Positions 12,025 to 64,000 of a stretch of DNA of 64,000 bases are shown here, one piece after another. The DNA comes from Ostreococcus lucimarinus (lineage: Eukaryota): the NCBI GenBank assembly GCA_000092065.1, contig CP000582.1, one strand, 5' to 3'. A program made the translations under genes and the position numbers. The notes beneath the pieces were generated by a model, which made no database searches, was not told the DNA's origin, and saw nothing but the letters and a program-made list of their open reading frames with translations. Each line of letters starts with the position of its first letter. Within the stretch, counting starts at the first letter, position 1.

Positions 12025-12057
<33 letters not shown>

Positions 12058-30024: not shown

Positions 30025-30056
<32 letters not shown>

Positions 30057-42169: not shown

Positions 42170-42391
42170 ATTTGTCTCGGCGCGCGGCGATGGGATCACC
42201 ATTAAAACTACTTTAGCGCTTCTTTGTTGAGCAAAACGCATCTGTTTAGATGATGAGTCGTCCGACCTTTGCCTTCGCGCGCTCGCCTCGCCTCGCGCGT
42301 GAAATAATCGTTCGTCGCGGATTAGGATGCGCGTCGCGGTTTTTGGTGGAATGCAAACTACTACTCGCGAGAGTTCGATGAATATGATTAT

Positions 42392-43507: not shown

Positions 43508-43664
43508 CCTCGCCGCGCGCGGTCCGCGGCGACGGCGCGCGCGCGTGTGCGACGACGTCGGCGTCCCGCGCGGCGTCGCCACTCGTCCGCGCGCGGCGTG
43601 CTCGAGCGCGCGCGCGTCGGTGGACGCGAATCACGATCGCGAATCCGTCCACGAATCCGTCGTC

Positions 43665-44639: not shown

Positions 44640-44729
44640 AAACAACATCGCGTACGCAGGGTGTAGAATTAACTTTTGTAGCTAATCTATTATTCATCGA
44701 ATGATTTCAAAATCTAACGCGCGACTTGA

Positions 44730-45188: not shown

Positions 45189-45235
45189 CGTCGGGCGTCG
45201 CGCGCGGCGTCGCGGCGCGTCGCGGCGATTCGATT

Positions 45236-45405
45236 CGAATCAATTCGTCGCGTCGTCGCGTCGTCGCGTCGCGTCGCGTCGTCGCGTCGTCGCGCCGCGC
45301 GCGGTGGTGTGTCGAGCGCCGCGTCCGTCGGGCGGCAGTCGACGACGCGACGACGCGACGACGCGACGCGACGCCACGCGACGCCACGCGACGCGAGGCG
45401 CGGAG
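45236..45405. repeat. imperfect inverted repeat of (TCGTCGCG)n / (CGCGACGA)n arms
   Basis: Arm 1 is about 45241..45300 (gtcgcgtcgtcgcgtcgcgtcgcgtcgtcgcg...). Arm 2 is about 45338..45400 (gacgacgcgacgacgcgacgacgcgacgcgacgcc...). Arm 2 is the reverse complement of arm 1. Lies between the divergent uL11 and WD40 starts. Confidence 0.6.
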
Positions 45406-45412
45406 AACGAGC

Positions 45413-48040
45413 ATGGCGCGAACGCCTCGCGCGGCGCGCGCGTCGACGGCGCGTCGGGAGACGGAAGACGCGACGCCGCGCGCGGGAAACGACGACGACG
45501 CGATGGCGGCGGCGGCGCGCGCGGAAAACGACGACGCGCGCAGGCTCGGTGGCGGCGCGCTGGCGTCCGCGACGTCCGGGACGTTCGCGATGAAAGATAG
45601 CGTGCTGATCACGCCCGCGAGGGAGTGCCTGCGCGCGCACGACGTCGAGGGCGGTGGACGAGGGCGACGCGTCGTCGTCGCGCGCGGGGCGGAGCAGACG
45701 TGCGCGTGCGCGTCGCCGTATTCGCAGACGCACGTCGTCACGGGGAGCGCGGACGGGACGCTGAGCGTGTGGGACGTGGAAACGAAGAAAACGGTGCGGA
45801 GTTATGCGTTTCCGTGCGCGATATACGATGTGGTGTATCCAGGAGGGGAGAGCGGGAAGGATTACGCGTACGTATCGGCGAGCGCGCGCGAGGACGGCGG
45901 CGGACGCGTGTACAAGGTGAGTTTATCTAAAGGGAAGATTGTGGAGAAGTTAGGAAAGACGTCGAGACCGTGCAAGTTAGTCGCGAGCGCCAGTGGCGCG
46001 TTCGTGGCGTGCGTGGAACGACGAACCATGTACGTGTGGGGGGTGGGCAAGGATCGCGTAGGCGTCGCCTCTCGCGCGTTGCGCGTTCATCACACCAAGG
46101 GCGTCACCGCGCTCGCGTTCTCGCACGATGACGAGATCTTAGCCGCCGGGGACTCGAGCGGAAGAATTGTGATGTGGCACGGATTCGCGCGCGCCGTGCG
46201 CAAATTACAAAGCGAGGCGCAGGGCGAGGAAACTGAGGTCAAGGGCGACGCGTTGCCGAGCACGACGTCGCACTGGCACTCTCGCGCCGTCGGGTGCTTG
46301 CACTTTTCCGCGGACGGCGCGCATTTGTTTTCCGGCGGTGAAGAGGCGGTGTTGGTGATTTGGACGGTGAAAGACGGGAAAAAGACATATTTACCGCGTT
46401 TAGGCGCGCCGTTGACGAAAATTGTGGCGCGACGCGAAGATCCCTCGCGACTGGCGCTCTTCGGTTCGGACAACGCCTTGCGACTGGTGAACGTCGCGTC
46501 GATGACCGTTGAAGGGACTATTCAGGGCGTGCGTCCACCCGTACTTGATGCAAAATCGACAAAGAGCGCCGATGGCGTGGCGTACGCGTCCGTAGTCGCG
46601 TATGATCCTCGCGCGGATGTGCTCGCGTTTTCCGCCGCCGGCGCCGCGTTGCAGTTTTACGACTACGCGCGAGACAACCACATCGCCGATCTCGCGGTAG
46701 CGCCGAGAAACTACGTCAACACGAGCGGAGAAGAAGACTCGCCGCTAGAATCACACGTCGCACACGCGTCGTTTTCGCGCGATGGGCGCGTGCTCGTCAC
46801 CGTGGACAGACGCAGCGATCAACCGCCGTCGGTGACGAGCGCGATTGAGGAGACGCTGAAAATTTGGGAGCGTCTTGACACGACGGATGAAGACGAGAAC
46901 GCCGACGTCGTCGTTCCTGGTGGCGCATTCACGTGCGTGGCGCAGTGCGAAATACCTCACAAAGGTTTGATCACGTCCGTCGGCGTACGGCCGAGCGCGC
47001 ACAGCCTCGAGGAGTCCATGGCGTTCACCGCCGGCGTCGAGGGGGAGGTGAAGATTTGGATCCCGAACGGTCGAGTTTCGCGAGGCGGCGAGCACGCGGG
47101 ATGGAGATGCCGATCGAGCGCCTCACATCCGAGTGGATCAGCGATCACGTGCGGCGCGTTCAGCGCCGACGGCTCTATTCTCGCCACGGCGGCGAATGAA
47201 ATAGTGCTCTGGGATCCCAAGACGAACGCCAAGCTCGCGACGTTGACAATGCCGAAGTCGTCGCCAGATGGGGAGCCCGAGAACCCAATCAAAGCGGTTG
47301 CATTCAGCGCTGATGAGCCTCTATTCGCCGCCTGCGACGGAACGACGCTGGTGTTTTGGAATTTGCAAACTTTACAGCCATGGCGCGTCTACTCGGCGCC
47401 GTGCGTCGATTTGTTCGCGCATCCGTCTGTGGCGATGTTTGTCGCTGTATTCGCGCCGCAGCGATCGAGCGAAGATGTCGAAGGTGTTGAAAACGCTGCC
47501 GTCGTCGTGCGATTCACCGGTCGGGACGCCACGCCCGCGAGTGCGTACGCGTGCCGCGACGGCGCGCCGGAAGCGGTGATTTTCCCGCCGGGCGATCGCT
47601 CCGACCGCGCCGCCGCCGCGACGTCGCTCGAGTCTTCGACGCCGATGCTCGTCATCACGCGCGACAGACAAATCATACGAGTAGGTGCTGAGACGAACCG
47701 CGAGGCGCGCGTGCGAGACGATATGGATATCGACCTTAAGCTCGCGACAAAGACGTTCCCGGGCGGCGTCGCCGTCGTCGGCGCGCCCGCGAACCCGCAG
47801 TTGAAGGAATACCTCGCCGACACCGAAGCGAGCGTTCGTGCGCTCAATCTCAGCACTGAAGACGACGACGATGTTCCAGCGCACGAGCGCGTCATCGGCG
47901 GCGCGCTTCAAGGCGTGGGTAAGATGCCTTGGGGCGCGCTCTTCGACTCGCCCTCGCACGAGTTGCCCCCGCTCACGACGCTGTGCCCGCGTTTCATGGA
48001 CGCCATGCTCGTGCGACAGGCCAAACCCGACGCGGAATGA
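45413..48040 (+). CDS. WD40-repeat protein, probably an SSU-processome/U3 snoRNP (UTP-like) component
   Basis: ATG verified at 45413. Multiple WD repeats (HVVTGSADGTLSVWDVETKK, ILAAGDSSGRIVMWH, HLFSGGEEAVLVIWTVKDGK, ILATAANEIVLWDPK, LFAACDGTTLVFWNLQT). About 875 aa. The family subtype is an inference. Confidence 0.7.
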   Translation: MARTPRAARASTARRETEDATPRAGNDDDAMAAAARAENDDARRLGGGALASATSGTFAMKDSVLITPARECLRAHDVEGGGRGRRVVVARGAEQTCACASPYSQTHVVTGSADGTLSVWDVETKKTVRSYAFPCAIYDVVYPGGESGKDYAYVSASAREDGGGRVYKVSLSKGKIVEKLGKTSRPCKLVASASGAFVACVERRTMYVWGVGKDRVGVASRALRVHHTKGVTALAFSHDDEILAAGDSSGRIVMWHGFARAVRKLQSEAQGEETEVKGDALPSTTSHWHSRAVGCLHFSADGAHLFSGGEEAVLVIWTVKDGKKTYLPRLGAPLTKIVARREDPSRLALFGSDNALRLVNVASMTVEGTIQGVRPPVLDAKSTKSADGVAYASVVAYDPRADVLAFSAAGAALQFYDYARDNHIADLAVAPRNYVNTSGEEDSPLESHVAHASFSRDGRVLVTVDRRSDQPPSVTSAIEETLKIWERLDTTDEDENADVVVPGGAFTCVAQCEIPHKGLITSVGVRPSAHSLEESMAFTAGVEGEVKIWIPNGRVSRGGEHAGWRCRSSASHPSGSAITCGAFSADGSILATAANEIVLWDPKTNAKLATLTMPKSSPDGEPENPIKAVAFSADEPLFAACDGTTLVFWNLQTLQPWRVYSAPCVDLFAHPSVAMFVAVFAPQRSSEDVEGVENAAVVVRFTGRDATPASAYACRDGAPEAVIFPPGDRSDRAAAATSLESSTPMLVITRDRQIIRVGAETNREARVRDDMDIDLKLATKTFPGGVAVVGAPANPQLKEYLADTEASVRALNLSTEDDDDVPAHERVIGGALQGVGKMPWGALFDSPSHELPPLTTLCPRFMDAMLVRQAKPDAE

Positions 48041-48134
48041 TTCGACTATGACGAACGAAGAAAAACGTTTAATCACCACATTAGCTACGTAGTGTCTTCT
48101 CTCGTCTCACAACAAAGTCTAAGCGTAAATGAGT

Positions 48135-48446
48135 TTACTTTGGGTTACGCAGCACCAAAATCACCGAATCGCCTCGTAAAAACATCTTGGAGATGAATCG
48201 ATCTTTATTCACCGGTTTCGCCTTCGCCGCCCCCTTCCCCGTCTTCGGCACCTCAGTCCAAATCTCCTTCACGTTTTCCAGCACCATGTTACAGTGTCGA
48301 TCGAACGCCTTGACGCGCGCCAAGAGCTTGCGATTGTTTCTACAATTGATCAAAACCTGCGTGTTCGCCTTCACCGACGCCGTGAGCACGCTCAGCGGCC
48401 CGGTGACGAACTCATTCTCTTCCTTATCGCCGTCTCTCGCGTCCAT
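48135..48446 (-). CDS. SNRPD2: small nuclear ribonucleoprotein Sm D2
   Basis: [57 protein letters not shown]...[22 protein letters not shown] is near-identical in pattern to SmD2. CAT verified at 48444-48446. Confidence 0.9.
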
Positions 48447-49278
48447 CGTCGACGACGCTCGCTCGTCGTTCGTTTCGCGTCGCCGCGCGGTGGATTCGGA
48501 CGCACTGACCTAACGTCCTCCTCGCGCGCGCGCGTTCGAGGGTCCTCCTCGCGCGCGCGGGACGTCGGGACGTCGGGACGGGGGCGTGGACGCGAGGTCG
48601 GGCTCGGACCTCGATCGTCGGCGCGTTCGAGTGCGGACGCGCGGCGCGGAACGCTCGTCTCGAGGGCGCCGTCGGATTTTCGCGATCTTCGCCCCGGCGT
48701 CGGCGCGTCCGCGCTCGATCAAAGTTTGCAGCGCTTTTCGGCGCCGACGATGGGCTGTCCACGCGTGGGCAAACAGTCCGAAACGCGGTCGGTCGCCCAT
48801 CGTCGACGCCGACGCCACGTCCGCGCGTCGGCGCCGCGCGTCGCCGCACATCGCGATCGGCGCGCGGCGCGACGGCGACGTGCGGCGTCGACGGCGCGCG
48901 TCGACGCGAAGCGCATCGTCATCACCGCCGTCACCGCGCGCGCGCGAAGAGCGCCTCGAAGCGCCGTCGCGGCGTCGCTCGCGCGCGTCGCATCGCGCGC
49001 GCGCATTGTCGCGCCGTCGCCGCGCGCGCTTTTCGCGGCGTCGATCGCGGGGCGCTCTTCGCGCGCGCGAGGGCGCGACGACGACGACGCGCGTCGGAAA
49101 CGGACGAGGGAAATATCACCGCGCGGTGCGCGGCGATCGCGCACGGGGGGGGCGACGCGCGCGCGGCATCGCTCGCGAACGACGCGTCGGTGTCGTTCGA
49201 ACTCCACTGGACGATCGGCGGATTGATTTGATTTGATTGATCGATCGATCGATTCGGATCGCGCGGACGACGATCGCG

Positions 49279-50888
49279 ATGGCGAGGGACGCGCGTCGGA
49301 CGAGCTCGCGGCTGAGCGGACAGGGCGCGCGCGCGCCCGACGCGGCGACGGGGACGAAGACGACGCGGGCGTCGACGCGGGTTCAATCGACGACGGCGAC
49401 GGACGCGAGTCGCGACGACGCCGGTCGCGACGAGCACGGCGGTGCGGCGGGAGAGGATGGAACGGTGGTGAACGTTCCGAGACGCGCGCGAACGGGTGCG
49501 TGCGCGCGCGCGCGCGCTCGAGATGCTTCGACGACGACGCGACGCGAGAATCGGCGCGAGCGGCGACTGACGACGACGATTTTTACGTACGACGAATAGC
49601 GACTCGGCGGAGACTGCGAAAAAGCGATCCGGCCGTCGGAGAGGGGGGTGGTGATGGCGACGAAGGGGCGATAGGGATTGGTGGCGCCAGCGCCGGCGGT
49701 GAGGCGCGCGATGGAGCGAAGACGGCGGAGAAGAAGCGAGCGGACGCTCGAGACGGTAGAGGCGGCGCGCGCGCCGGCGCCAAGCGACGCGAGGCGGAAA
49801 AGAAGTCGACGGCGACGACGGTGAAACCAAGAAGTAGGAAAAATGGAGGCGTCAACACGAAGGAACGCGAAATCGCGGAGGCATTGTTCGATCTCGCCAC
49901 GCTCGCTGCGGACGTAGACAGAGAGACGGAGGCGTCGGCGGGCGAGAAGAACGGGAAGCGAAAACGCAGCCGAACGACGAAGAAAGTAGCGGGCGCGATG
50001 TTTACGGCAACGACGACAACGACGACGAATGGGGGGCTCACGAACGCGAGCGCGGGTACGGGATACGGGATGCACGCGGCTGCCGGTTTCGGCGCCGGCT
50101 TGGGACTGCAGTTTTCTTCGGCGTTTCCGCCGCCGCCCGTCGGATACTTCGGCGGATCGCACGGCGTGAATCCATACGGAATTTCCTTACCTCGACCGAA
50201 AAACGCCGCTTTGCACGTTTACATTTCTCATTTCATCGATTACACGCAGCAAGTGGTGCGTCAGACGGCGCCGGCGCTGGACGCCGGAGTCGACGACGTC
50301 GCGCGCGACACGTCGCAGGCGGGTGATCCGAGCACGTCCACCGCGCACGCACGCTTTCCAGGCGCTTTCTGTGGTCCGTTCCCACCGCTCATGAACCCGC
50401 ACGTAATGGCTGCATTACTTTCCACGCAGCCGGTGATGGCGGGCGTCGGGGGCGGCGACGGCGGCGGCGGCGGCGGCGGCGGTGGAGGAGGAGGAGGAGG
50501 AGGAGGAGGAGGAGGAGCGCCGGATCCGCAGCAAGCGCAACAGCAATTTCAACTGTTGAATATGATGATGCGGCAAACCGCGGCGTTTCCGATGTTTGGT
50601 GCGGGATTTCCCGCACCTCCAGGCGCGTCGACCGCTGGTGACGTGATGGGCGTGCCGGTGTTTCCTCCCGTGGGAGACAACCCCATGATGATGGCGATGA
50701 TGGGCGCGTCGATGCCGCCTCACGTGTTGGAGGCGATGAACGCGATGGCGCAGCAACAACAGCTACAGCAGCAACACGACCAAATTCAAGCGCCTGTGGG
50801 TGATAAGCTGCCTGCGGCTGCGGCTGCGGCTGCGGCTGCGGCTGCGGAAGTCAAGGTTGAACCGCCCGTCGCCGCGGCGCTGTCGTGA
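49279..50888 (+). CDS. hypothetical low-complexity (Gly/Ala/Gln/Met/Pro-rich) protein, possibly two exons
   Basis: Track ORF 49233..50888. Downstream part has EREIAEALFDLATLAAD, GKRKRSRTTKK, poly-T, poly-G (15 x GGN), poly-Q and poly-A runs. Possible intron 49496..49600 (GTGCGTGCGCGC donor, GGCGACTGACGACG branch, TAG acceptor), with exon 1 from ATG 49279 in the matching phase. Exon 1 is weakly supported because its sequence is low-complexity. Confidence 0.4.
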
Positions 50889-51146
50889 GCTGCGAGCGCC
50901 GAATGTATTTTCACGCGGTACGAACGAACGAACGATGAGCATGTATATTGAGCAAACCTTAGTTCAGCATTACTACTAGAGCGAAACGCGCGATATCGAT
51001 ATAATTACACCACTCTGTAGACCACCCAAAGGGACAAACGGCCCGTCCTCCTCCTTCGCCGCAGGCTAGGTTTTAGCTTCGGGTCTTTTCGTCGCCCGAC
51101 CCATCCGCCGTCGCGTCATACCGCGCCGCCGTACGCGACGACGACG

Positions 51147-52205
51147 ATGATCGCCCCCCAAGCGCAGCTCACGATGCGCGCGTCTTTGGCGCCGCGCCCT
51201 TGCTCGCAAACCACCACCAACGCGCGCTCGCAACCGTCGCGCGGCGCCCTTCAAGTCGTCGGCGCGGCGACCAAGGCGAAGAAGAATCGCGACCTCGAGC
51301 GATTGCGCGAGCTCGCGAGCGCGGAAGAGACGTTTTTGGTGGCTGGGTTCAACTACAAGGGGTTGACGGTACGTGTGACAGCGGCGCACGCGCGATCCTA
51401 TCGCGTCGCGCGGTCGAGGACGCGCGAAGACGCGTTCGGATGACGCCGCGCGCGACGACGACGTCGTCGCGGGTTATCGAGAGGGATGCCCTTTAGCGCG
51501 CGTTCGTGGCGCCGCGACGACGCCGACGGCGTTCAAGACGAAAGCGTCGCGATAAATAAAATCGCCACGCCCTTTGGTGCCCCGTTCGCCGGCGTAAGAG
51601 CGTCGAGGCGCGCGCAAAGGCGCGGGGCGCGTCGACGATGGGGCTCGCAGGGTTTTAGGGCTAGGTCGCGGGCGTGCGGGCGTCTCGCCGAGGCCGAGGC
51701 CGAGTATTGGGCGCGTTGAGAGGTCGAAGACTGACGGAAATGCGCTCGTTTCGATGAACAGGTCAAGGACATGATCACGTTTCGCCGAGCTTTGCCGGAA
51801 GGAAGCCACATCATGGTTGCCAAGAACACGCTCTTGCGCAAGGCGTTGGAAGGCACGGCGTTTGAGCCCCTCTCCGAGTGCTCGACTGGGATGAACGCGT
51901 GGGTTTTTGTGGATGAAAACGTTGCGCCGACGATGAAAGCGGTGAAGGCGCTCACCAAGGTCTGGAACAAGGCTGGTAAGGAGGTTGCGTTCACGGGTGC
52001 GTGCATGGACGGTCAATTCATCGCCGCGAACAAGATTGAGCCGCTCGAAAACTTGCCGACGAAGATTGATCTCATCACCAAAATTGCGGTCGGTATCAAG
52101 CAAGTGCCGACTAAGCTCGCGCGTGGTACCAAGGGTAATGCCAACAAGCTTGGTTACGCGGCGAAGGCGATCGCTGAAGGTAAGAGCGATCTTATCCAAG
52201 CGTAG
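51147..52205 (+). CDS. rpl10: organellar (bacterial-type) ribosomal protein uL10 precursor; two exons
   Basis: join(51147..51368,51762..52205). Exon 1 (ATG verified) is a transit-peptide-like MIAPQAQLTMRASLAPRPCSQ...FLVAGFNYKGLT, followed by GTACGTGTGACAG. Branch GAAGACTGACGG at about 51729, acceptor CAG at 51759-51761. Exon 2 starts VKDMITFRRALPEGSHIMVAKNTLLRKALEGTAFEPL. The spliced junction KGLT/VKDMITFRRA..MVAKNTLLRKALEGT reproduces E. coli L10 RGVTVDKMTELRKAG..RVVRNTLLRRAVEGT. The track splits it into 51147..51443 and 51771..52205. Confidence 0.8.
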
Positions 52206-52494
52206 GGCGTCTGATTTTGCTCGAAAAATCTCCTTAGTGGCGACGTTTGTATTGAGGCGGCGCGTAGTTAAACTTTCTGTAACATTCGCAGATTAATTAA
52301 ATCACTCGAACAGACACTCGAAATCGCCCAGACAGTTGCGCGCTCGTCGAAATCGCTCTTTCTCAGCGCACTCATCGACGCGACACCCGAGACACGCGAG
52401 GGAGCTTTTGGATTTCACACCTGCCGACGAGGCAGCGCGTTGACCGCGTCATTTCCCCTCGCTGTGGCGCGCCCGGCCCGCAGCGCGCGACCAA

Positions 52495-53397
52495 ATGAGC
52501 GTGAAAACAAAGACAACACCATCGAACGAGAGTTTCGCCGCGGCGTGCGCGAGTTTGGAGCGCGCGATGCGCCGTTTGACGAAAGAAATGACGATTCATA
52601 GTCCCCAGCCAGTGCGGCGACACCGCGACGGCGCGCCTGTGGCGAGACAGAGACTGAGAACTATCGATGGTAATCGTGATCTCGATCCCACACGCGCGGT
52701 GACGACGTCTTCGAGCACGCTGGCGAACGCGAGCACGACGCCGTCGTGGGAAAGCGAGCTCGAATCCGTCGACGCCGACGCCTTCGCGAGCGACACGTCG
52801 CGCGAAACTCGTTTCATGGATGCGGGCACCCGCGCGCGCTCGTCCTCGGATGACGATGAAGGTTACGGCGCTCATACCGCGACCGCCCGCGAAGTGCGAC
52901 GTTTGGAGAGCAAGTGTGCGCGATTGGAAGCGACGGTTTCGACGCTGCGCGACGCGCTCGAGGCGAGGTCGCGCTCAGAAGAAAAGCGACACATGACGTC
53001 CACATCGGGAGACAACGTGGTGCACGACGCGCTCGTGAGTGAGATAGTGGCGCTTCGTCAACGCGTGACGAGGGCGAACGTTGAACGCGAGCGATTGATA
53101 GAAATGAGCAACGATTTACGCGCGGCGCTGAAGCGGAACACGACGACTACGACTGTCGGTCCGTCTTCGTCACCGATTCACGCCAAGTCTCCGACGAAGA
53201 CCACCAGCGCGATCCCGCTCGTCGAGGCGACGCCGGCGGTGCGACCGATCGATTCGCGTGTGAAAATGCTTTCGTCGTCTTCGAGTGAACGCGAGACGCA
53301 GAGTCAGAAGGTGAAGCTGAAGAGAGCGATTCGACGAGCCAAGGAGCTGCGCAGCGCGGCTCCAGGACTCGTCGTTCGCAACTGGAATCGCACGTAG
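52495..53397 (+). CDS. hypothetical coiled-coil protein
   Basis: ATG verified at 52495. Ser/Thr-rich N-terminus and a central coiled coil (EVRRLESKCARLEATVSTLRDALEARSRSEEK...ALRQRVTRANVERERLIEMSNDLRAALK). No family recognised. Confidence 0.5.
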   Translation: MSVKTKTTPSNESFAAACASLERAMRRLTKEMTIHSPQPVRRHRDGAPVARQRLRTIDGNRDLDPTRAVTTSSSTLANASTTPSWESELESVDADAFASDTSRETRFMDAGTRARSSSDDDEGYGAHTATAREVRRLESKCARLEATVSTLRDALEARSRSEEKRHMTSTSGDNVVHDALVSEIVALRQRVTRANVERERLIEMSNDLRAALKRNTTTTTVGPSSSPIHAKSPTKTTSAIPLVEATPAVRPIDSRVKMLSSSSSERETQSQKVKLKRAIRRAKELRSAAPGLVVRNWNRT

Positions 53398-53536
53398 TAG
53401 TTTCGTTAGTGTGTACAAGTGTGTACTCGTCTTTCGCAACTGGAATCGCACGTAGTAGTTTCGTTAGTGTGTATCAATAAAATGTTTGTGTCTGCGTGTG
53501 CGCGAAGAGCTGCTAAATACTAATAATCATTCATAA

Positions 53537-54865
53537 TTACGCCGTGCCGTCAGTGAAAGTCCACATCGCACCCTTGCCTTCGCCGCGCTTCTCGACAGCG
53601 ACGCACTTGGACGCGACGCGCATCATTGCCGCCCAAATCGGCGTCGGGTCATACAAATAGTACTCCGGATACTTCGTCTTCAACGCCTCGGTCGCTTCGA
53701 CCGCCTTGTAGTGCGGAATCGCGCACTCAACGTGGTGCGCCACGTGAGTGGATCCGATGCGGTGGTGTAAGAAGTCAAACACGGGTCCGTACGGGCGGTC
53801 GATCGTCAAGAATGCGCCCTTGATGTACGACCACTCGTCCGCGGCCAAGTGTTGGACGTCCACATCGGTGTGCTGCAACCACGTGTACAAGACGAGCCAA
53901 AAGTTGACAAACAAATACGGTCCCAGGTACAGGGCGACAAACGGAGCCCAACCGCACTGGGCAACCCAGGCGGCGAGAACGCCGACGAACGCGAAAACAC
54001 CAATGTCCGAGTAGTACACTTTCTTCTTCCAGCTTCCCGGGAACAGCTCCAAAGCGCCGGTATTGATGTTAGGCAAGAAATGGTTGGTGACGCCTCTCGC
54101 GCTCCCGCCCGTCGCGCCGGTGAGCAAGTACGCCGGCCAGCCGAAAACCAAGTGGGTGACGAGCTGAAGAATCGCGAACGGGCCCTCACCCAAGTTCTTC
54201 TTCGCCTTGAGGTTCAAGTCACCCTTCAATTCGCCCTTGACGTACGGCACGTGCGTTTCTCCTTCCGTCAAGTGGTTCGTTCGTGAGTGGTGGACAGCGT
54301 GCGACCGCTGCCAGGAAAAGTACGGCACGAGGAGCGCCGAGTGCAACGCGTACCCGACCGCGTCTTGAATGAATCGGTTATCGCTGAACGCGTTATGGCC
54401 GCACTCGTGCGCGATCACCCAGCATCCAGTGGCGATCGTACCGTTCACCGCGGCGTACGCAAGCCACGCCGGCCACCACGCCGCCTGCAACGGCAATGTC
54501 GCCGCGGCGATCAAGCCGCACCCCACCGTCATTGCCGTCGACACCGCGGCGTACATCAACGACTTGGCCGTATCCTTCTTGAAGCATTCATCGGGAATGT
54601 TTGACAACACCGCCGCGCGCGAAGGGAACTCCTTCTTGTGCGGGAACGTGAGCGCCTGTCCCTCCAGCCCGCTCCTGGGAAGATCTTCAAACCCACCGAG
54701 CGCGATCGCGCCCGCGCGTCGGTGCGCCCGTCCGCGCGCATCCGTCGTCGTCGTCGTCGCCGTTCGCGCGATGTATTTACTCGCCATCACGCGTCGCGTC
54801 GACGTCGTCGACGTCGTCATCGCGCGCGTCGCGGCGACCCGCGAGACGTTTGCCGTCGTCATCAT
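53537..54865 (-). CDS. membrane-bound delta-12 (omega-6) fatty acid desaturase, FAD2/FAD6-type
   Basis: Three His boxes: HECGHNAF, WQRSHAVHHSRTNH, HVAHHVECAIPHYKA. Four TM segments. About 80-aa Thr/Ala/Arg-rich N-terminal extension suggesting organelle targeting. MM start at CAT 54860-54865. Confidence 0.85.
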   Translation of the reverse strand: MMTTANVSRVAATRAMTTSTTSTRRVMASKYIARTATTTTTDARGRAHRRAGAIALGGFEDLPRSGLEGQALTFPHKKEFPSRAAVLSNIPDECFKKDTAKSLMYAAVSTAMTVGCGLIAAATLPLQAAWWPAWLAYAAVNGTIATGCWVIAHECGHNAFSDNRFIQDAVGYALHSALLVPYFSWQRSHAVHHSRTNHLTEGETHVPYVKGELKGDLNLKAKKNLGEGPFAILQLVTHLVFGWPAYLLTGATGGSARGVTNHFLPNINTGALELFPGSWKKKVYYSDIGVFAFVGVLAAWVAQCGWAPFVALYLGPYLFVNFWLVLYTWLQHTDVDVQHLAADEWSYIKGAFLTIDRPYGPVFDFLHHRIGSTHVAHHVECAIPHYKAVEATEALKTKYPEYYLYDPTPIWAAMMRVASKCVAVEKRGEGKGAMWTFTDGTA

Positions 54866-55436
54866 CGTCCTCGTCGTTCGCTATCCGCGTTTGCGTCGTG
54901 CGCGTCGCGTCGAGACGTCCTGGGCGCGCGTGCGTCCTGGGCGCGCGCGATTCTCGCCGTAAAAACTTTGCGTCGCTCGTCGCTCGCGTCGACGTCGGGC
55001 GTCGTTCGCGCGCGCGCGTGTGCGCGACGAACGCGGAGGACCGCGACCGCGAACGCCGCGTGTTCGGACATTCGCAGTCAGAGTTATGTTATGTGAACAT
55101 TCGCAGGCTGATATCGCGTCGCTCCACGCATTCGAGCGCTTTGGATGGCCATCATCGGAGCGCCCGCGATCACGCGGCGACCGACCGACCGACCGCGCCT
55201 CGGCGCGCGCGCCCGCACTGCGTCGCGCCTCGGCGCGCGCGAGTGGTCGATCGAGCGCGCGCGCGCGGCGAACGCGCGTCGGCGAGCGCGCCGCGGGATC
55301 GGCGCGACGCGCGCGCGCGACGGCGGCGCGGCGAATCGACGGCACGCTCGAGCACGCGCCAGACGCGCGGTCGCGGACGCGGGCGCGTCGGTAAGCGTAG
55401 AAGACGTCGGTCGCGACGCGCGCGAGGGCGAGAACG

Positions 55437-57707
55437 ATGGCGTGCGCGACGCCGAACGCGGCGTGCGCGACGCGCGCGACGTCGCGCGCGAGGGGGGGAC
55501 CGAGCGAGAGGGCGTTCAGACGCGCGGCGTCGCGACGTCGCGCGGGGGGAGGAATCCAAGCGCGCGGGACGACGGCGTCGGCGTCGGCGCGCGATGGAGG
55601 ATCGAGCGCGCGGGATTCCATAGACACGCTCGTGATCGAGCGAAAAGTCTCATCCGTGCGCACGTCGACGTCGACGTCGACGTCGAGGCCGCGCGACGGC
55701 GCCGACGGCTCGAGGCGAGGTTCTCGGACAAGGACGCGAACGCGAGCCATCGACGAGCCGCCGGGGATCGGTAAATCTGCAGACGGTGGCGACGAGGATA
55801 TGGACGTGACGTTCGCGGAAGGCACGGTTTTTAGAAAGCGCGTGAAACAGCCCTCGAGCGAAGAAGTTTGGTACGCGGGCTACATACGCGAGATGGAGGG
55901 CGTGAAATCGATGGACGAAGACGAAGAGGAAGAAGACGAGGATGACACGACGTCGAACGTGGATGGAAGACGTGCGAAAAATGTGGGGGGACAGGGCGTG
56001 CCCGGGATCATTCACTACGTGTTACACAGACTGCCCGGGCAGGCGAGAACGCCGCTGCCGACGGTTGTGCAAAACCCAGTGGATAATCTCTCGGTTTGGG
56101 CGCTCGCGACCTGTGGATTCTTATGGACGGCGTCGACGTGCATGGTGTTCTCCTTGCTGCCGGTGTTCATGCAAACGGAATTTGGATTTAGCAACACGCG
56201 CATCGGCGCCATGGAAGGGTTCGCGCTCTTCGTTTCAAACTTTAGCCGAGTGTTCTCTGGCGTGCTTTCGGACGTCCTCAAGTCTCGCGTCAAGGTCATT
56301 GCCGTCGGTTCAATCATGACGGCGGCTATGAAACTCACGTTGGCTTCCGCGGTGAGCGTGCAACAGGTTGTGCTAGGCAAGCTTTTGGATCGATTTGGTA
56401 AGGGGATTCGCGCCGCGCCGACGGACGCACTCATCGCAGATTTATCGCCGAGACCGAAGCGTTCATCCACGTATGGATTGCATCAGTCGATGACGACGCT
56501 TGGCGGTGTTATGGGCTCTCTTGCAGCGATGACGTGCATGAAGGCGACGCACAATAACTTTCGCGCCACCTTCACGTTGGCCGCCGTGCCGTCCATCATC
56601 GCCATCTTCATTCTCATTAAGGGCGTGCGAAAACCGAAACGTCTGATGAGTAAGCCCAAGTACAAGCCGCTCATGCTGCCGGGTCGAGGACGCGCGCTGC
56701 CGTCGTGGAAACGTCACACGCGGGGTCCACTAGCCATGCCCCATCTTCGAGCGCGTTGGCGACGCACCGCGTGCACGTCAAACGTCAGAGAAATCGTTTG
56801 GCATCGCGGGCAAAAGACATGGAAGACGGTGCGAGATTGGCTGTGGCAAATGAAATCTCGGGCGAAAATGGTGTCGCCATTCTTAGATCAAATCGTCGAT
56901 GGCTTTGAAGAGTCTAAGGGCGCTCCCGAAAACGAAGGAACGGTGCGCATCAGAAAAACGAGAAGGCGAAAAACTTGGTTTCGGCGCGCCGACGGTGGTG
57001 AAATGACTCAAGATGACTTGCGGACGCGAGCTTTGATTTGGGCCGATGATCCGTGGGCCGAAGCTCAACAACAAGGCGCCGGAAGAACGAAAAGCTCCTC
57101 GGCTACGAGCTTCATGTGGGGCGAATGGAATTGGAGTTGGACAGAGGTGGCGCAGCTGCCTTGGGCGTTTTGGCGAGCTCTTCTCGTGTTTTCAATTCTC
57201 AAAGTCGCCAGATTTAGCGAAGCTTTCGTCACACTACACGCCAAAGCTGTCGGAATGCAAGTGGCTTACTTGCCGGTCCTCATGTTTGCGACGAACATCA
57301 TGCAGTCGGCGTTGACGTATCCACTAGGAGTGTACGCGGACAACGCCGATCAAAGAGGACGAGACGGCCGTAAGAACATGCTTCTCGTCGGTTTCGGCCT
57401 CATGGTCGTCGCCGACGTCATTCTAGTCATGGCGAACGTCCCGTGGCAGGTGTTCTTGGGGTATCTGGTTGTCGGCGTTCACATGTCCATGACGCAAGGG
57501 AACATGAAAGCGGTGCTGAGCGCGACGATGCCACCAAACGTGCGCGGCACTGGATTCGCCATCGCCGCAATGTCACAAGGCCTTTCTCTTGGTTTCGGTA
57601 ACTACATGGCTGGATTCCTGTGCGATCAGCTTGGCTCCGCTGGCGCATTCTGGGGCGGAGGGGCTTTCGCCATGCTCGCTCTCGGAGTGGGATGGCTTCT
57701 ACTGTAA
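55437..57707 (+). CDS. major facilitator superfamily (MFS) transporter with long N-terminus and central loop
   Basis: ATG at 55437. About 200 aa of Arg/Ser/Asp/Glu-rich N-terminus including a (GACGTC)n-encoded STSTSTS, then six TM helices, a long basic loop and six more TM helices, ending GGGAFAMLALGVGWLLL. True start could be an internal Met (for example MEGVKSMDED). Confidence 0.6.
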   Translation: MACATPNAACATRATSRARGGPSERAFRRAASRRRAGGGIQARGTTASASARDGGSSARDSIDTLVIERKVSSVRTSTSTSTSRPRDGADGSRRGSRTRTRTRAIDEPPGIGKSADGGDEDMDVTFAEGTVFRKRVKQPSSEEVWYAGYIREMEGVKSMDEDEEEEDEDDTTSNVDGRRAKNVGGQGVPGIIHYVLHRLPGQARTPLPTVVQNPVDNLSVWALATCGFLWTASTCMVFSLLPVFMQTEFGFSNTRIGAMEGFALFVSNFSRVFSGVLSDVLKSRVKVIAVGSIMTAAMKLTLASAVSVQQVVLGKLLDRFGKGIRAAPTDALIADLSPRPKRSSTYGLHQSMTTLGGVMGSLAAMTCMKATHNNFRATFTLAAVPSIIAIFILIKGVRKPKRLMSKPKYKPLMLPGRGRALPSWKRHTRGPLAMPHLRARWRRTACTSNVREIVWHRGQKTWKTVRDWLWQMKSRAKMVSPFLDQIVDGFEESKGAPENEGTVRIRKTRRRKTWFRRADGGEMTQDDLRTRALIWADDPWAEAQQQGAGRTKSSSATSFMWGEWNWSWTEVAQLPWAFWRALLVFSILKVARFSEAFVTLHAKAVGMQVAYLPVLMFATNIMQSALTYPLGVYADNADQRGRDGRKNMLLVGFGLMVVADVILVMANVPWQVFLGYLVVGVHMSMTQGNMKAVLSATMPPNVRGTGFAIAAMSQGLSLGFGNYMAGFLCDQLGSAGAFWGGGAFAMLALGVGWLLL

Positions 57708-57802
57708 ATTACTGCGCTGCGTACGCGAGTTCGAATAGCGCGAAGATAGATGTTTAGTTCTAATACGAAAGCTCCATCGTCGCCGACGCCATGTTTCGCT
57801 TT

Positions 57803-58489
57803 CTATTCTATTTCACGCCGCGACCAATTCCCGCTCTTGCCACCAACTTTGGCCTCTAACCTAACGTCTCCGATGACGATGTCCTTACTCACCGCTTTAC
57901 ACATGTCGTAAATCGTCAACCCACTCACCGCCGCCGCCGTGAGCGCCTCCATCTCCACTCCCGTTTTACCAGTACACGAAGCTACCGCGACGATGTCGAC
58001 GGCGCGCTCGCTTTCATTCAGCGTTAAATCAACTTTCACCGCGTCGATCGCGATGGCGTGACACAACGGAATCAAGTCGTGCGTTTTTTTCGCCCCCATG
58101 ATCCCCGCGATGCGCGCGGTGGCGAGTACGTCACCCTTTTTCATTCTATTTTCTCGTACCAACGCGAACGCCTCGGCGCCGAGCCACACCCGCGCCGACG
58201 CCGTCGCTTCTCTCGACGTCGACGGCTTCGAACCGACGTTCACCATGGACGCAGCACCCGAGCGCTCGTCTACGTGCGTTAAGCGACCCGTAGGCGCCGC
58301 GTCATCGCCTCCACCGCCGACGCGAACGCCGCCGAGGCCGAACGTTTCGTCGAGCGAGGCGTTCGCCTCCTCCACCGCACTCGCGCGGTCGCCGTTCGCG
58401 TGAAACGAGGACGCGGAGAGCGATGCGCGCGTTCGCATCGACGTCACCGAGCGCGCCGTGCGCGCGATGAGGCGTCGAAGGGTCGTCAT
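57803..58489 (-). CDS. moaC: cyclic pyranopterin monophosphate synthase accessory protein MoaC (molybdenum cofactor biosynthesis)
   Basis: Track ORF top (58537) is GTG; ATG at CAT 58487-58489 (MTTLRRLIART, presequence-like). LTHVDERSGAASMVNVGSKPSTSREATASARV...KKGDVLATARIAGIMGAKKTHDLIPLCH...GKTGVEMEALTAAAVSGLTIYDMCKAVSKDIVIGDVRLEAKVGGKSG is collinear with E. coli MoaC. Confidence 0.85.
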   Translation of the reverse strand: MTTLRRLIARTARSVTSMRTRASLSASSFHANGDRASAVEEANASLDETFGLGGVRVGGGGDDAAPTGRLTHVDERSGAASMVNVGSKPSTSREATASARVWLGAEAFALVRENRMKKGDVLATARIAGIMGAKKTHDLIPLCHAIAIDAVKVDLTLNESERAVDIVAVASCTGKTGVEMEALTAAAVSGLTIYDMCKAVSKDIVIGDVRLEAKVGGKSGNWSRREIE

Positions 58490-58538
58490 GCGTGAACACG
58501 CGCGTCGCAGTCTGCGGAGGCGTCCGCGCGCCGTCACA

Positions 58539-58606
58539 CGTCGCCTCGCTCGCGCGCGTCGCGCGACCTCGCTCGCGCGCGTCGCGCGACCTCGCTCGCG
58601 CGCGCG
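58539..58606. repeat. about 3 x 23-bp tandem repeat GTCGCGCGACCTCGCTCGCGCGC
   Basis: Direct repeat read from the sequence at 58539..58606. Lies in the 140-bp interval between the divergent MoaC and helicase starts. Confidence 0.6.
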
Positions 58607-58629
58607 CGCGTGGGGAGCGCGCGCGCGTC

Positions 58630-61320
58630 ATGGGTCCCAGTAACGCCCAGAAGAAAGCCTTGGCGAAAGCCAAGCGCGGCATCGTGTCATCCGGAGCGAT
58701 GAGCTCTAAGAGCGGCTTCGACCCAGCGCAAGTAAAACCAAAAGAGCTCCCGTGTCCGCACTGCGATCGGATATTCAAGCAACAGGACAGACTGAAACAG
58801 CACATCGCGAAGCAGCACGCCGATGTCGTGGCCGAACAGAGCGGTTCGGAGTCCGTGGTGGGCGATGGGAAGACAACAAAGGTGAGCGCGAAGGCGGCGC
58901 TCATCATCGCGGAGCGCGAAAAATTCAAGGAGGAAGCGGCGAAGGAACGCGCCGCGAATCCCGACTCCAAGGTCGCCACGCCGTTTGCAAGAATGAGCTG
59001 TAAGCTCCCGAGCACAATCTTACGCGAGTTTGTGCAAAAACAGAAGGAGTATAAGGCTCCCGTGTTTCGTGCGAAGGAAGAAAAGCTCGACGGCGAATCG
59101 ACGTGGACGTGCAAACTCGTTTTAAGAGACAAGCACAAGCCCGACAAGGACAAGGTGTTCTTCTGGAACGAAAAGTGCGAGACGAAATTAGAGGCTGAGC
59201 ATAGAGTCGCGGTGGTGGCGCTGGCGAAAATTGCCAACACGCTACCTTTGCAGCGCCTGTTGCCGAATCAATACAAGGAGACCTTCACACAATGCGAAGA
59301 GATGGAAAAAAAGAAAGTGGAGGATGCGAAGAAGCGAGCGGCGAGAGAGGAGCAACGCATCGCCCGAATGAAACGACTTGCAAAGCAGGAGATGGCACAA
59401 GTCTTGACTATGAGTGAGGAAAAGCGAGCACTCGTGGAATCCATACTCAAAGAAGATTACGAGTCCGCGTCTGACGAAGACGAAGACGAAGACGAAGACA
59501 TGCAGCTCGAAGAAGACGTTGAGATAGCTGGGGTGAACGCGTTGTGTGACAAATTGGAAAGCTTAGGGTTCGGGCGCGAAGACGCACTGGCGGCATCGAA
59601 AGCGACGAAATCGAAAGACATCGCCGCGCTGGATGGCGCGATTAGCTGGTTGTGCGTTCACGTGCCCGACTACAGGCTACCCACGGTGTACGCTCCTAAA
59701 TCGCTCAACGAGGGTGGAGTGGTGTTACTCAGTAAAACCAAACCCGCTCAACCCGTGGAGATCGATTCGAGGCCGTCGAGCGAGGATGCGGCCTGGCTCT
59801 GGGAGCGCGGTTACGCGGCGACGGCGTGCGACGACGCATTGCGCGCGCACTCCAGTCGAGAGGAAGCGCACGCTCACTTATTCGGCCAAGTTCTCGCTGG
59901 AATTTCGAAATCGTACGAGGCGTGGCCGACCCACGATTCTGATGCAAACGACGAAGACTGGGAAGACGAATTGACGGCGATAGAAGCCATTTGCGGCGAA
60001 GACACGGTTGAGCGCTTACCCGCCGGCGTTCGCGTCGCAATCGATACATCCGCCGGCGTGAAGGGATATCTCGAAGTGTACCGCCTCAAAAACGGTGGCT
60101 ATCCAGCGATTGAACCGCCTCTGATTGCATTTCATGCGCACGGTGAACTTCGAGCTGAGTTTTTCGGCGCGACTCGAGCGCTTGCGAAGCTCGCCATTGA
60201 TGGATGCGGCGCGCCTTGCGTGTACACTATGATAGAGGCTGCCGGAAGCTTGGTGGAGAAAGTCGCGAAAACACATTCGTCGTTGCAAACTATCAGCGCT
60301 GCGGATGCATCGAATCGGCCACCCGTACCGAAGCCACGAGTGCCGAACGTCGCCCCAAATCGCGCCGCGACGCCATCTCTGGCGGCGGCGGAGTCGAAAC
60401 GACAGAACACAAAACGCCCGCATCGAGGGCTTTCCGAGAGCGATATCGTGTCTGAGAATCGAAGGTTGCTCGATGCTTTCAACGCATACCTTGAGTCGGC
60501 AAAATCCGGCAAAGGTGAAGCGTATGCGATGATGAACGTGCGTTTGAATTTGCCGGCGAGCGGAAGTCGAGAAGAAGTGACTCGAGCCGTGAACAAATCA
60601 TCTGTGGTTGTCCTGAGCGGCGAGACTGGTTGCGGCAAGTCAACGCAAGTGCCTCAGTTCATACTTGAATCTGAAATCGCCGCGGGCCGTGGCGGTGAGA
60701 CTAACATCATCGTCACTCAGCCACGTCGAATTTCCGCCATCGGCCTCGCCGAACGAGTCGCGGCGGAGCGCTGTGAGAGGTGCGGTGACGTCGTCGGCTA
60801 CTCCGTTCGACTCGAATCCAAGCAATCGTCGAAAACGCGACTTCTTTTCTGCACGACTGGTGTTCTGCTTAGAAGATTGCTTTCCGATCCCTTGCTCGCG
60901 AACACGACGCACGTTATTCTTGACGAAGTTCACGAACGTTCAGTCGACTCCGACTTGTTGCTGCTGCTCCTGCGAAGAGTCATAGCAAAGAACCCGAAAA
61001 TACGAATCGTACTTATGTCCGCCACCGCGGATGCGGACCTGTTCGATGACTATTTCAAGCATCCATCCGCAATCGCCGCGGTAAGCGGCGTGTCGACGAC
61101 GCAAGTCCACATAGCCGGCTTCACGCATCCCGTTCGCGAATACTTCTTAGAAGACGTATTCGAAATGACTGGTCATACGGTCGGCAAGGGTGGACCATAC
61201 GCGAAGCGCAAGCAAATCAAACGCGTGAAGTCAAACGCAGAAGTTGAGACGCTTTTAGCCGAAAAAGCTGCGCAACGTAAGGCTGAGCGCGCCGCTCTCG
61301 GGCTGGACAAAGGTGGCTCG

Positions 61321-61361
<41 letters not shown>

Positions 61362-63267
61362 CATCGACGACGTTCCTGACGATTGGGATTTAGCTGACGA
61401 TGAACGCGCGTATGAGGTAAAACGTGCGCCAGACGTTGAAGACCAATTCGGCGAGACACCTGCGATGACACCCACGCAAATCGAGGAGGAACGTCGACGA
61501 GCGGACTTGCTGTCTGAGGCGTCGAGAGCGTTGAATGGGTACTCTGTCCCGACTCAAAGAAGTATTCAAAACGTCGACGAAACCATCATCAACTATGACG
61601 CCATCGAGCAGCTCGTTGGTGCAATTATTCAAACAGAGCTTGAAAACGGTCCGAGTGCGCTAGTTCCACCGCCCATTGCGGGAACAAACCCGAAAGATGT
61701 CGGCCTCGGCGCGATCCTCATTTTCATGCCGGGTCAATTTGAAATTTTGCGGTTGATTCGCAAACTCGAGCAATCACGCCTTTTAGAGGCGGATGACGTC
61801 GGTGCGCTCCGCATTCTACCGCTTTACGGCTCGCTGTCCTCCAAAGATCAGAAGCGTATATTCGAACGTCCGCCAGATGGAGTGCGGAAAATCGTCGTGG
61901 CGACCAACATTGCGGAGACATCCGTGACGATTGACGACGTGCGGTATGTCATCGATACGGGACGTGCTAAAGAGATGCAGTACGATACGTTGCGCGGGTT
62001 ATCAGTGCTTGCAGACACTTGGGTCTCGCAGGCGGCGGCGAAGCAGCGGCGAGGTCGTTCTGGTCGCACGGCGCCGGGCGCGCGGTTCGCCATGTTTTCG
62101 CGAGCGCAGTTCGCGAACATGTTGCCTCAGCAACCGCCCGAAATGCTTCGAACGCCGCTTCAGCAGTTGTGTTTGTCCATCAAGGCTATGAGCGAACAAC
62201 CAGTCGCGCAGACGCTCGGCGCCGCTTTGACACCGCCTGATACTCGCGCAATTCACGCCGCACTTGACGAGCTTTGCGCGTTGCGAGCATTCGACGCCGA
62301 TGAACGTTTGACGCCGCTCGGACGTCACTTGGCGCAGATGCCTGTCGACGCTCGTATAGGTAAAATGCTTTTGTTTGGCGCGTTGTTGGGCTGTCTCGAT
62401 CCTATTCTCACGATCGCCGGAGCGATGAGCGGTAGACCGTTGTTCTTCTCGCCGAAGGATAATCGCGACGCTGCGGACAAGGCGAAGCGAAGTCTTTCCG
62501 CGACAAAATCGGACCACCTGACCATGGTTGCGGCGTATAAGGGATGGGCAAAGGCAAAGGCGCGAGGAAAGCCGTTCGAACGACGGTATTGCGAGGAATA
62601 CTTTTTGAGTTCGCAAGCGCTTGAGGCGGTACATGCGAGTCGGCTTGACTACGCGACGATTCTCGCCGATTTAGGTTTCGTGAGGCGCGAGTACATCAAC
62701 AACATGCGCCGTTTCGGAACGGGAGGAACGGAGGCTGATTCAAACAGCGAAACTGCCCGCGTGATTAAAGGCGCGCTCGTCGCTGGCTTCTACCCTCATG
62801 TCGTTCGAGTGAAGCATCCAGAGACCAAGTACGCGCAGACGACATCCGGGGCCGTGGCGAAGGCTGCGAACAGTCGCGAGCTGAAATACTACTCGAAGGA
62901 CCTTGGGCGCGTGTTCTTACACCCGGCATCGGTAAACTTTCACTGTGGGAAGTTCGAGAGCCGATGGATCGTATACAGCGAACGCGTCGAGACGGCAAAA
63001 GTGTACATTCGCGACAACACCATGGTCGGTTCGTATTCGCTTCTACTTTTTGGCGGCGATATCGCTGTCCACCACGAGCAAGGTCTCGTTCGCGTCGACG
63101 ATTGGGCGACGTTCGCAGCGCCCGCAAAAATCGGCGTTCTCGTGAAAGCACTGCGCGCCAAGGTTGACGAACTGCTTCTCGCTCGCATCAACCATCCGTC
63201 GGCGACGCTCGCGTCGACGCCCGTGGTGCGAGCGTTATTATCCCTTCTGGAGTCAGAAGGGCATTGA
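58630..63267 (+). CDS. DHX57-like DEAH-box RNA helicase with C2H2 zinc finger, UBA-like and RWD-like domains
   Basis: Track ORF starts at ATG 58492, only 2 nt from the MoaC start. The second ATG, 58630 (verified), gives MGPSNAQKKALAKAKRG. N-terminal CPHCDRIFKQQDRLKQHIAKQH (C2H2), UBA-like GVNALCDKLESLGFGREDALAASKAT, RWD-like DEDWEDELTAIEAICGEDT. Helicase core GETGCGKSTQ, TQPRRISA, DEVHERS, SATAD, TNIAETSVTIDDV, QRRGRSGR, then HA2/OB region. Poly-Asp insert. Ends about 490 bp before the telomere. Confidence 0.85.
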
Positions 63268-63757
63268 TTGATTCAACGTAGGCATCTAGAAACCGCGCGA
63301 TGACGCGTACGATTTGTGAAGCACAAACGTGACAGTCGCGCTACTCGCACGTCGCCGTCGTCGTCCCGCGAATACACCGAGGATGTGCGAGAATTAGATG
63401 AGTCGGAAAAATCTAAAAAAAATACGAATCGAAGAGAGAGTCGAAACTCTCTCGCGTTATCACAACGTATGACTGGTCGTTTGTCGTCCAACACGAACAC
63501 TGAAGAAGGCACTTTGACGCAAGAGTCCGGCGACGTCCGGAGCGTCGAGGGGGAAGTCTGCGGTGCCGTGCTGGTCGACGAGTGATGGCCGTAGGGTGTC
63601 GTGAAGGTGCACAGGAAGGATGCGAATGCTAGTGACTTTTCGGGTTTAGTACGACGCAGAGAACCTAGGATTAGGTGTAATAAATGACTTAGGGTTCCAC
63701 CGTGGGGAGGGCCATCTTCTCGAGGTTCTCGGCGTAAGGCATCGGGATGTCGACGCT

Positions 63758-64000
63758 TTTAGGGTTTAGGGTTTAGGGTTTAGGGTTTAGGGTTTAGGGT
63801 TTAGGGTTTAGGGTTTAGGGTTTAGGGTTTAGGGTTTAGGGTTTAGGGTTTAGGGTTTAGGGTTTAGGGTTTAGGGTTTAGGGTTTAGGGTTTAGGGTTT
63901 AGGGTTTAGGGTTTAGGGTTTAGGGTTTAGGGTTTAGGGTTTAGGGTTTAGGGTTTAGGGTTTAGGGTTTAGGGTTTAGGGTTTAGGGTTTAGGGTTTAG
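63758..64000 (+). repeat. telomere repeat array (TTTAGGG)n, about 35 copies, running to the window end
   Basis: Perfect TTTAGGG heptamer tandem array from about 63758 to the last base. G-rich strand on + reading 5'->3' toward the end, as at a right-arm chromosome terminus. Degenerate telomere-like fragments (GGGTTTAGTACG, CTTAGGGTTCC) lie within the 150 nt before it. Confidence 0.95.

Follow-up and report, generated by a model that had tools for sequence, protein, structure and literature searches.

Genes and features at the distal end of the window

The stretch of DNA analysed here, called the window throughout, comprises 64,000 nucleotides of the alga Ostreococcus lucimarinus (assembly GCA_000092065.1, contig CP000582.1), and our subject is its last few kilobases, where a gene for an RNA helicase is followed by a very short subtelomere and by an array of telomere repeats that runs to the final base. 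Proteins encoded in the window have exact entries from O. lucimarinus CCE9901, namely, ABO94809.1, ABO94817.1 (MoaC) and ABO94813.1 (PIP5K), all of them on one record of 895,087 bp. Contigs fetched for comparison are designated by the letter L and a number.

The terminal telomere array, (TTTAGGG)34.7, occupies positions 63758..64000 on the plus strand. Direct reading of the sequence and Tandem Repeats Finder agree on a perfect tandem repeat of 243 bp and 34.7 copies, with period 7, 100% matches, no indels and a score of 486. The G-rich strand runs 5' to 3' toward the last base of the window, and the final bases lie in the middle of a repeat (...TTTAG). Motif counts gave the same picture: the two-unit probe TTTAGGGTTTAGGG had 33 overlapping matches, all on the plus strand and all inside the array, and none in 100 dinucleotide-preserving shuffles, while a motif search of the whole window found no CCCTAAA array. 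A preliminary description of this DNA, made from the window alone, had reported about 35 perfect repeats in right-end orientation up to the final base, and both the count and the orientation hold.

TTTAGGG is the repeat that occurs naturally in the telomeres of O. lucimarinus, whose POT1 protein (OlPOT1) binds GGGTTTAGGGT in vitro but not TTAGGG repeats (PMC2794166), and Ostreococcus has been listed with the same unit (PMC1955436). The window array therefore has the same unit, with the G-strand outward, as the plant-type (Arabidopsis-type) telomere of O. lucimarinus and O. tauri, with no difference in the repeats, the window holding only 243 bp of them. As such, it would be the product of the telomerase of this alga, and would cap the chromosome end and be bound by telomere proteins such as OlPOT1.

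Composition of the 490-bp subtelomere

The open reading frame (ORF) of the helicase ends with a TGA codon at 63265..63267, and the gap between this stop codon and the array (63268..63757) measures exactly 490 bp, as against the approximate figure of 490 bp given before. This gap is a mosaic, in which about 200 bp of the 3' flank of the gene are followed by about 230 bp of an element that breaks off at ...ACTTAG, two G residues, a 62-bp piece of the gene PDHB, a single T and the telomere. The gap had previously been described as containing no repeat families or pseudogenes, a statement that is wrong and that a reading of one window gave no means of checking. Comparison of the 490 bp with the rest of the window returned only short, GC-rich chance matches, searches of the last kilobases for RNA genes found no Rfam family and no tRNA, and the small ORFs within the gap (89, 79 and 50 amino acids) had no Pfam match and no exact database entry.

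The proximal part, 63268..~63467 (plus strand), is a 3' flank of the helicase gene that is specific to this locus. Nearly all haplotypes of the locus have it, with 94-100% identity (L005, L006, L034, L036-L041), L033 (up to 63400) and L042 (which ends at 63381) share part of it, and the other chromosome end introduced below (L023-L032) lacks it. With its A-rich stretch near 63405..63425, this flank probably holds the 3' untranslated region and the poly(A) region of the helicase gene.

The same flank is missing altogether from two further contigs. In L003 (14637..15167) and L004 the 3' end of the helicase gene is 99% identical to the window and homology is lost 5 bp past the stop codon; the sequence beyond this break is found again in the long contig L034, where it stands 3.7 kb more distally. 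On alignment, this suggests a 3.7-kb deletion haplotype from which the whole usual 3' flank would have been removed.

An element common to several chromosome ends

The distal half of the subtelomere belongs to an element family. By BLAST (basic local alignment search tool) and alignment, positions ~63462..63692 (plus strand) are a copy of a subtelomeric element common to several chromosome ends, truncated at either side in comparison with longer copies, with 94-97% identity to L023-L032 and up to 97% to L005. The exact 38-amino-acid ORF at 63469..63585, which served as a sequence tag, is recorded on 31 contigs. Ten of these were fetched (L023-L032), and in all ten the tag lies about 120 bp past a different last gene, of 1261 amino acids and without similarity to the window, and the element stands at the contig end, four of the contigs running into TTTAGGG arrays. 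The 6 kb upstream in L023-L032, with a guanine plus cytosine (GC) content of 55%, show no similarity to the window either. What had appeared to be free of repeat families is in its distal half an element present at another chromosome end.

Canonical copies of the element extend 58 bases further than the copy in the window (GTATTAGCTAGTCGG...CTCATGCG), up to the start of the telomere, and the passage into the array is direct in L005, L024-L026 and L036, the junction in L005 and L036 being CTCATGCG followed by TAGGGTTTAGGG. In the window, the canonical last ~50-58 bp are missing, and 65 bp (GG, the PDHB fragment and T) stand between the element and the array. We had considered the 58 bp before the telomere of L005 as a possible filler derived from rRNA, which was rejected, as Rfam found nothing in them and they are the canonical distal end of the shared element.

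The few degenerate telomere-like fragments mentioned in the preliminary description are real, and were located at 63642..63649 (GGGTTTAG), 63665..63675 (CTAGGATTAGG) and 63689..63696 (TTAGGGTT). The first two are conserved internal parts of the shared element, GGGTTTAG being replaced by TTTAGGGTTTAG in some copies, and the third coincides with the point at which the element is broken.

Shared subtelomeric sequences of this kind have been published for O. lucimarinus, where Type-I sequences of up to 411 nt occur at 21 extremities and Type-II sequences of up to 844 nt at 15, so that together they are found at 36 of 42 extremities (Chaux-Jukic et al., 2021; PMC8287924). According to the passages of that study that deal with this species, it has no tandem subtelomeric repeat and the homologous sequences immediately adjoin the telomere; the copies are truncated, their junctions with the telomere fall in various phases, fragments of one type edge the other, and 'partial deletions and repair' are noted for them (PMC8287924). 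The window element agrees with these descriptions (PMC8287924) in being short, non-tandem and homologous between ends, and in L005, L024-L026 and L036 its copies adjoin the telomere. It differs in that the window copy, of ~231 bp and truncated on both sides, is separated from the array by GG, the 62-bp PDHB fragment and T, and no such intervening insert is mentioned in the same passages on O. lucimarinus (PMC8287924). The interval 63273..63683 is exactly 411 nt long, which is the Type-I maximum, but this was dropped as a coincidence, because homology to the other end begins only at ~63462.

A captured fragment of a pyruvate dehydrogenase gene

Positions 63695..63756, on the minus strand, are a 62-bp fragment of the coding sequence of pyruvate dehydrogenase (PDH) E1-beta, a piece of non-functional filler DNA that contradicts the earlier statement that no pseudogenes are present. 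The fragment is identical in 62 of 62 positions to L007 4586..4647 and to L010 27..88, and its minus-strand reading gives codons for VDIPMPYAENLEKMALPTVE, 16 codons before the stop of the parent gene. The donor ORF is L007 2611..4689, whose C-terminal 327 amino acids are a mitochondrial PDH E1-beta, with 92% identity to a named mitochondrial precursor of O. tauri and with the transketolase-type Pfam domains PF02779 and PF02780. All nine metagenome matches to the fragment lie in PDHB genes, L010 being the parent gene at a contig end. The 21-residue peptide of the fragment matched in the PDB only human PDHB, weakly (E ~0.9) and at the homologous position (residues 299-317).

The contigs in which the donor was recognised are metagenomic and belong to the same species or to one very close to it, rather than to the CCE9901 assembly, and a search for a parent copy of PDHB within the window found none. 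Over the 62-bp stretch, other Ostreococcus clades reach only 85-87% identity; the copy is therefore recent and comes from the same or a very close genome. As a separate observation on the donor, the ORF L007 2611..4689 fuses an N-terminal lipoyl (biotin_lipoyl) domain to the PDH E1-beta domains, an architecture known from alphaproteobacterial PdhB.

Both borders of the fragment can be read base by base. On the proximal side, the window leaves the element after ...AATGACTTAG (63692), continues with GG and then with TTCCACC, whereas the L027 allele has ...AATGACTTAGCTAGTCGG at the break point and continues as CTAGTCGG, and the parent PDHB gene has ...GATGTC before the same TTCCACC. Thus, in the alignment with L027 and with the PDHB parent, the two G residues at 63693..63694 (plus strand) are orphans of the element break. 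With TTAG before them and TT after them, they form TTAGGGTT, about one telomere unit, and from this context we interpret GG as a seed that would have been added by telomerase or derived from a telomere. The first two bases of the fragment, TT, are an ambiguous microhomology. On the distal side, the junction reads GACGC, a single extra T (63757, plus strand) and TTTAGGG, and since the parent gene continues from GACGC with CGGCG, this T is not parental.

End structures in related haplotypes

Natural populations carry at least six different end structures at this locus. In addition to L005 and L036, with the canonical junction already given, L039 has another flank ending in ...CTAGGG, followed by TTTAG, by 81 bp of the shared element and by the array, the element being cut at the point corresponding to window position 63508, where CACTGAAG is joined to GGTTTAGGG with an AG microhomology. 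In L040, the array follows directly after ...CTAGGG, the junction being CTAGGG/TTTTTAGGG, and at the other chromosome end (L023-L032) the element sits behind a telomeric seed, TTTTTTAGGGTTTTCG. Thus the point at which non-telomeric sequence passes straight into telomere repeats varies from one related genome to another (the window, L039, L040, L005 and L036), and the three-part pattern of the window, namely, a telomeric seed of one unit, a captured piece and the telomere, is seen also in L039. These differing positions of the telomere behind the same gene fit repeated terminal truncation and repair.

In L023, a 38-bp non-telomeric, coding-like insert, CGTGCACGCACTTGAAGTGCTCCTCGTGGATGCCGCGA, lies between proximal telomere repeats (6291..6328). 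It is possible that this is a second case of captured filler DNA; its donor was not found among the fetched loci.

Interpretation and alternative explanations

We consider it highly probable that the window ends with the right-hand telomere of a CCE9901 chromosome, and that the 490 bp before it are a mosaic left by end repair, with PDHB filler and de novo capping. The order of the repair events and the enzymes involved are what we infer from the junctions. The end would first have been eroded or broken inside the shared element; the TTAG 3' end would then have been primed by telomerase, or one telomere unit would have been retained; a short templated or captured filler would next have been taken from the PDHB locus by way of the 2-bp TT microhomology; and the end would finally have been capped by de novo telomere addition.

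Independent metagenome contigs with the same MoaC-helicase pair stop shortly past the helicase, which suggests that the array lies at the physical end of the chromosome. In the gene-called contigs of this locus (L033-L042) MoaC is identical to the window protein. TTTAGGG arrays oriented as in the window terminate L005, L036, L039 and L040; the 341-kb contig L038 ends 491 bp past the helicase stop, and several others end within 114-557 bp of it. No sequence distal to the array is present in the window or in any array-bearing contig. The following points weigh against this interpretation. The window stops inside the array, so that distal unique DNA is not directly excluded, and contigs built from short reads will break off not only at true ends but also at a long array in the interior of a chromosome. 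Moreover, L033, L034 and L035, together with L001 (whose helicase protein is 95% identical), continue past the helicase into other genes, and may be real structural variants or chimeric assemblies.

If the array were an interstitial telomeric repeat, with the chromosome continuing beyond a record that merely stops, both the mid-repeat end of the window and the four continuing contigs would be accounted for, and the orthologous helicase is indeed chromosome-internal in an O. mediterraneus-like clade and in another Ostreococcus clade. However, L033, L034, L035 and L001 have no telomere array at the junction; they are therefore different haplotypes, and not a read-through of the window array. The array itself is perfect, has its G-strand outward and is preceded by an element that precedes telomeres at another end. 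In addition, array junctions fall at different points between strains and show telomerase-seed microhomology (L039 and L040), which is typical of terminal healing and argues against an inherited interstitial repeat, and O. lucimarinus has been analysed with telomeres at the extremities that bear short shared sequences (PMC8287924). We thus give an interstitial array hardly any credence. Only slightly less improbable, in our opinion, is that the structure of the subtelomere, above all the PDHB insert of 62 bp, arose as an artefact when the reference was cloned or assembled. The ends of chromosomes are difficult to clone and to finish, and a single scan of the metagenome contigs of the Joint Genome Institute (JGI) found no telomere-adjacent copy of the PDHB fragment, which also counts against our interpretation, as the haplotype may be private to the cultured strain if it is not such an artefact. 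Yet the insert is flanked by junctions of telomere type (TTAG/GG and GC/T/TTTAGGG) and not by vector or read-end signatures, a chimeric read is unlikely to yield a 62-bp internal piece of coding sequence with telomeric sequence on both sides, and the architecture of seed, captured piece and array occurs independently in L039. In L023, a 38-bp insert lies within the proximal repeats.

The remaining alternative concerns how the element arrived. Break-induced replication or recombination could have brought element and telomere from another end in a single event, with the PDHB piece already in the donor and with no healing by telomerase. This is compatible with the element being common to several ends and with its copies standing behind short telomeric seeds (L023-L032 and L039). 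We nevertheless regard it as unlikely, given that no copy from the other end or from the same locus carries the PDHB piece, all having the canonical 58-bp terminus, and that the window element is broken exactly where the insert begins; at least the last step was therefore local. As copying in one step bears on the arrival of the element, it is compatible with end repair as the explanation of that last step.

Two of the continuing contigs deserve description on their own. L033 is a 56-kb contig with its junction at window position 63400 (L033 1..5245, with the helicase reversed), and past the helicase it carries no telomere but genes for ARS2/SERRATE, a pyrophosphatase and RRP7; the contig represents a variant produced by chromosome-end fusion or by translocation, or else it was assembled as a chimera. 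In L001, the gene after the helicase (14877..17183) encodes 768 amino acids with Polysacc_lyase, Big_7 and CBM96 domains, and the GC content drops to 44% in the last 500 bp of the contig; this gene may be a subtelomeric acquired gene, or the contig may be chimeric. The extended tails of L001, L033, L034, L035 and L020 were compared by tblastx and share no distal genes.

The last gene and its neighbours

The last protein-coding gene, on the plus strand at 58630..63267, lies in an ORF of 58492..63267 and encodes, from its first ATG at 58630, a protein of 1545 amino acids, with no intron in this reading. Its Pfam domains are DEAD, Helicase_C, HA2_N/HA2_C, OB_NTP_bind, DSRM_DHX29 and RWD. The gene had been called a DEAH helicase with its stop codon at 63267, of which the position of the stop is right; helicase motif II reads DEVH, however, and the protein is therefore a DExH-box helicase (DHX57/DHX29-like) and not literally a DEAH one. 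No exact database entry was found for the protein. Its orthologues, with 72-95% identity, all come from marine metagenome contigs, including one cluster named Ostreococcus mediterraneus; their JGI name is DHX57, and gene calls of 1543-1547 amino acids stand at the corresponding place in L033-L042. Within the gene, (GAC)17 at 61321..61372 encodes a run of ~15 aspartates, and the same region of the Micromonas-like orthologue L002 shows trinucleotide-repeat similarity.

The genes for RPL10, a desaturase, an MFS transporter, MoaC and the helicase run up to the end of the chromosome, in accordance with the earlier remark that no gene-poor subtelomeric buffer is present. This position next to the telomere is lineage-specific. 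In the O. mediterraneus-like contigs L016-L019 and in the other clade, L021-L022, the orthologous helicase is chromosome-internal, and is followed downstream by LSM, WDR75, RPL11, TPT and PIP5K and then by tens of kilobases of sequence. In the window, WDR75 (45413..48040, plus strand) and PIP5K (42395..43507, minus strand) lie upstream of the helicase and in inverted order, which implies a rearrangement breakpoint directly after the helicase. A third clade, L020, has the helicase on an 865-kb contig, 6.65 kb from the contig end, with unrelated small genes between and no array at the end. More broadly, comparison of window 42395..48040 with L016 and L021 shows that the whole LSM-WDR75-RPL11-TPT-PIP5K block is upstream and inverted in the window, and further local inversions involve MFS/desaturase, MoaC and RPL10. 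Judged from gene order, these differences would mark a multi-step rearrangement next to the chromosome end.

Telomere-like motifs also occur elsewhere in the window. Outside the array (1..63757), the 7-mer permutations of TTTAGGG occur 21 times as G-strand and 5 times as C-strand, as raw counts, and the longest TTTAGGG-like tracts are GGGTTTAGGGG at 12507 and GGTTTAGGGG at 6380. A further telomere-like motif, AGGGTTTTAGGGCTAGG at 51649..51665, is found ~130 bp upstream of the gene for ribosomal protein L10, the position of that gene having been inferred from the alignment with L001; we take this motif to resemble the 'telo-box' promoter element of plant ribosomal-protein genes.

Discussion

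A telomere that follows a very short subtelomere, with genes up to it, is ordinary in O. lucimarinus and already published (PMC8287924). The surprise implied by the preliminary description is therefore misplaced, as this is the norm described for a very compact genome; it is because the genome is extremely compact that the last gene ends 490 bp from the array. What is new is modest, namely, the captured PDH E1-beta fragment at this end and the variety of forms that the chromosome end takes at one locus in natural populations.

Telomere healing, or de novo addition of telomeres at broken ends, is known from yeast, Plasmodium falciparum, DNA elimination in nematodes, and human neotelomeres and cancer cells (PMC10055226, PMC5550746, PMC11347171, PMC11293586). 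The window end resembles these cases in that non-telomeric sequence is joined to telomere repeats and all that lay distal to it is lost, and in the short G/T-rich seeds at the junctions (TTAG/GG in the window, AG/GGTTTAGGG in L039 and CTAGGG/TTT in L040). It differs in that the evidence comes from natural haplotypes and a reference genome and not from an induced break, in that the dependence on telomerase is presumptive, and in that only the last few hundred bases are affected, without deletion of a gene.

In the same manner, the fragment may be compared with the filler DNA that non-homologous end joining leaves in plants and with the mitochondrial or other DNA that is captured at breaks in yeast. 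Repair of breaks mediated by nuclear copies of mitochondrial DNA (numts; PMC2567098) and templated insertions at repaired breaks (PMC11724301) are related phenomena. The likeness is that 62 bp from an unlinked locus stand at a repair junction, with a 2-bp microhomology on one side. Unlike such filler, however, the window insert lies between a telomeric seed of one unit and a full telomere and not between two chromosomal break ends, and, in contrast to filler of organelle DNA, it was donated by a nuclear gene that encodes an enzyme of the mitochondrion.

Subtelomeres of other organisms are far richer in repeats, as illustrated by the X and Y' elements of yeast. Sultan arrays have been described in Chlamydomonas (PMC8287924), and elements of up to 20 kb in C. 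merolae (PMC1955436). The window end has in common with them that it contains sequence common to several ends, and that internal telomere-like seeds may prime healing. In contrast to Chlamydomonas, yeast and C. merolae, it lacks tandem arrays, gene families and a buffer of kilobase scale; its subtelomere is shorter than 0.5 kb, and the genes beside it are conserved ones with housekeeping functions.

These results anchor the window to the right extremity of a chromosome of O. lucimarinus and confirm the compactness of the genome, both of which were known from publications, and they place at this end a datable repair scar, in the form of a gene fragment with a known donor. They also illustrate that a subtelomere that looks unique in one window can still belong to a family common to chromosome ends. 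It is tempting to speculate, with rather more doubt than conviction, that the ends of wild Ostreococcus chromosomes turn over fast, by erosion, priming of telomerase on seeds and capture of short pieces, the shared elements being merely such pieces that spread. If this were true, pieces would be captured from other subtelomeres or from ordinary genes such as PDHB, and the haplotypes present in ocean metagenomes would suffice to measure the process. The repair scar and the different end structures at this locus together recommend Ostreococcus as a natural system in which the making and remaking of minimal subtelomeres can conveniently be studied.

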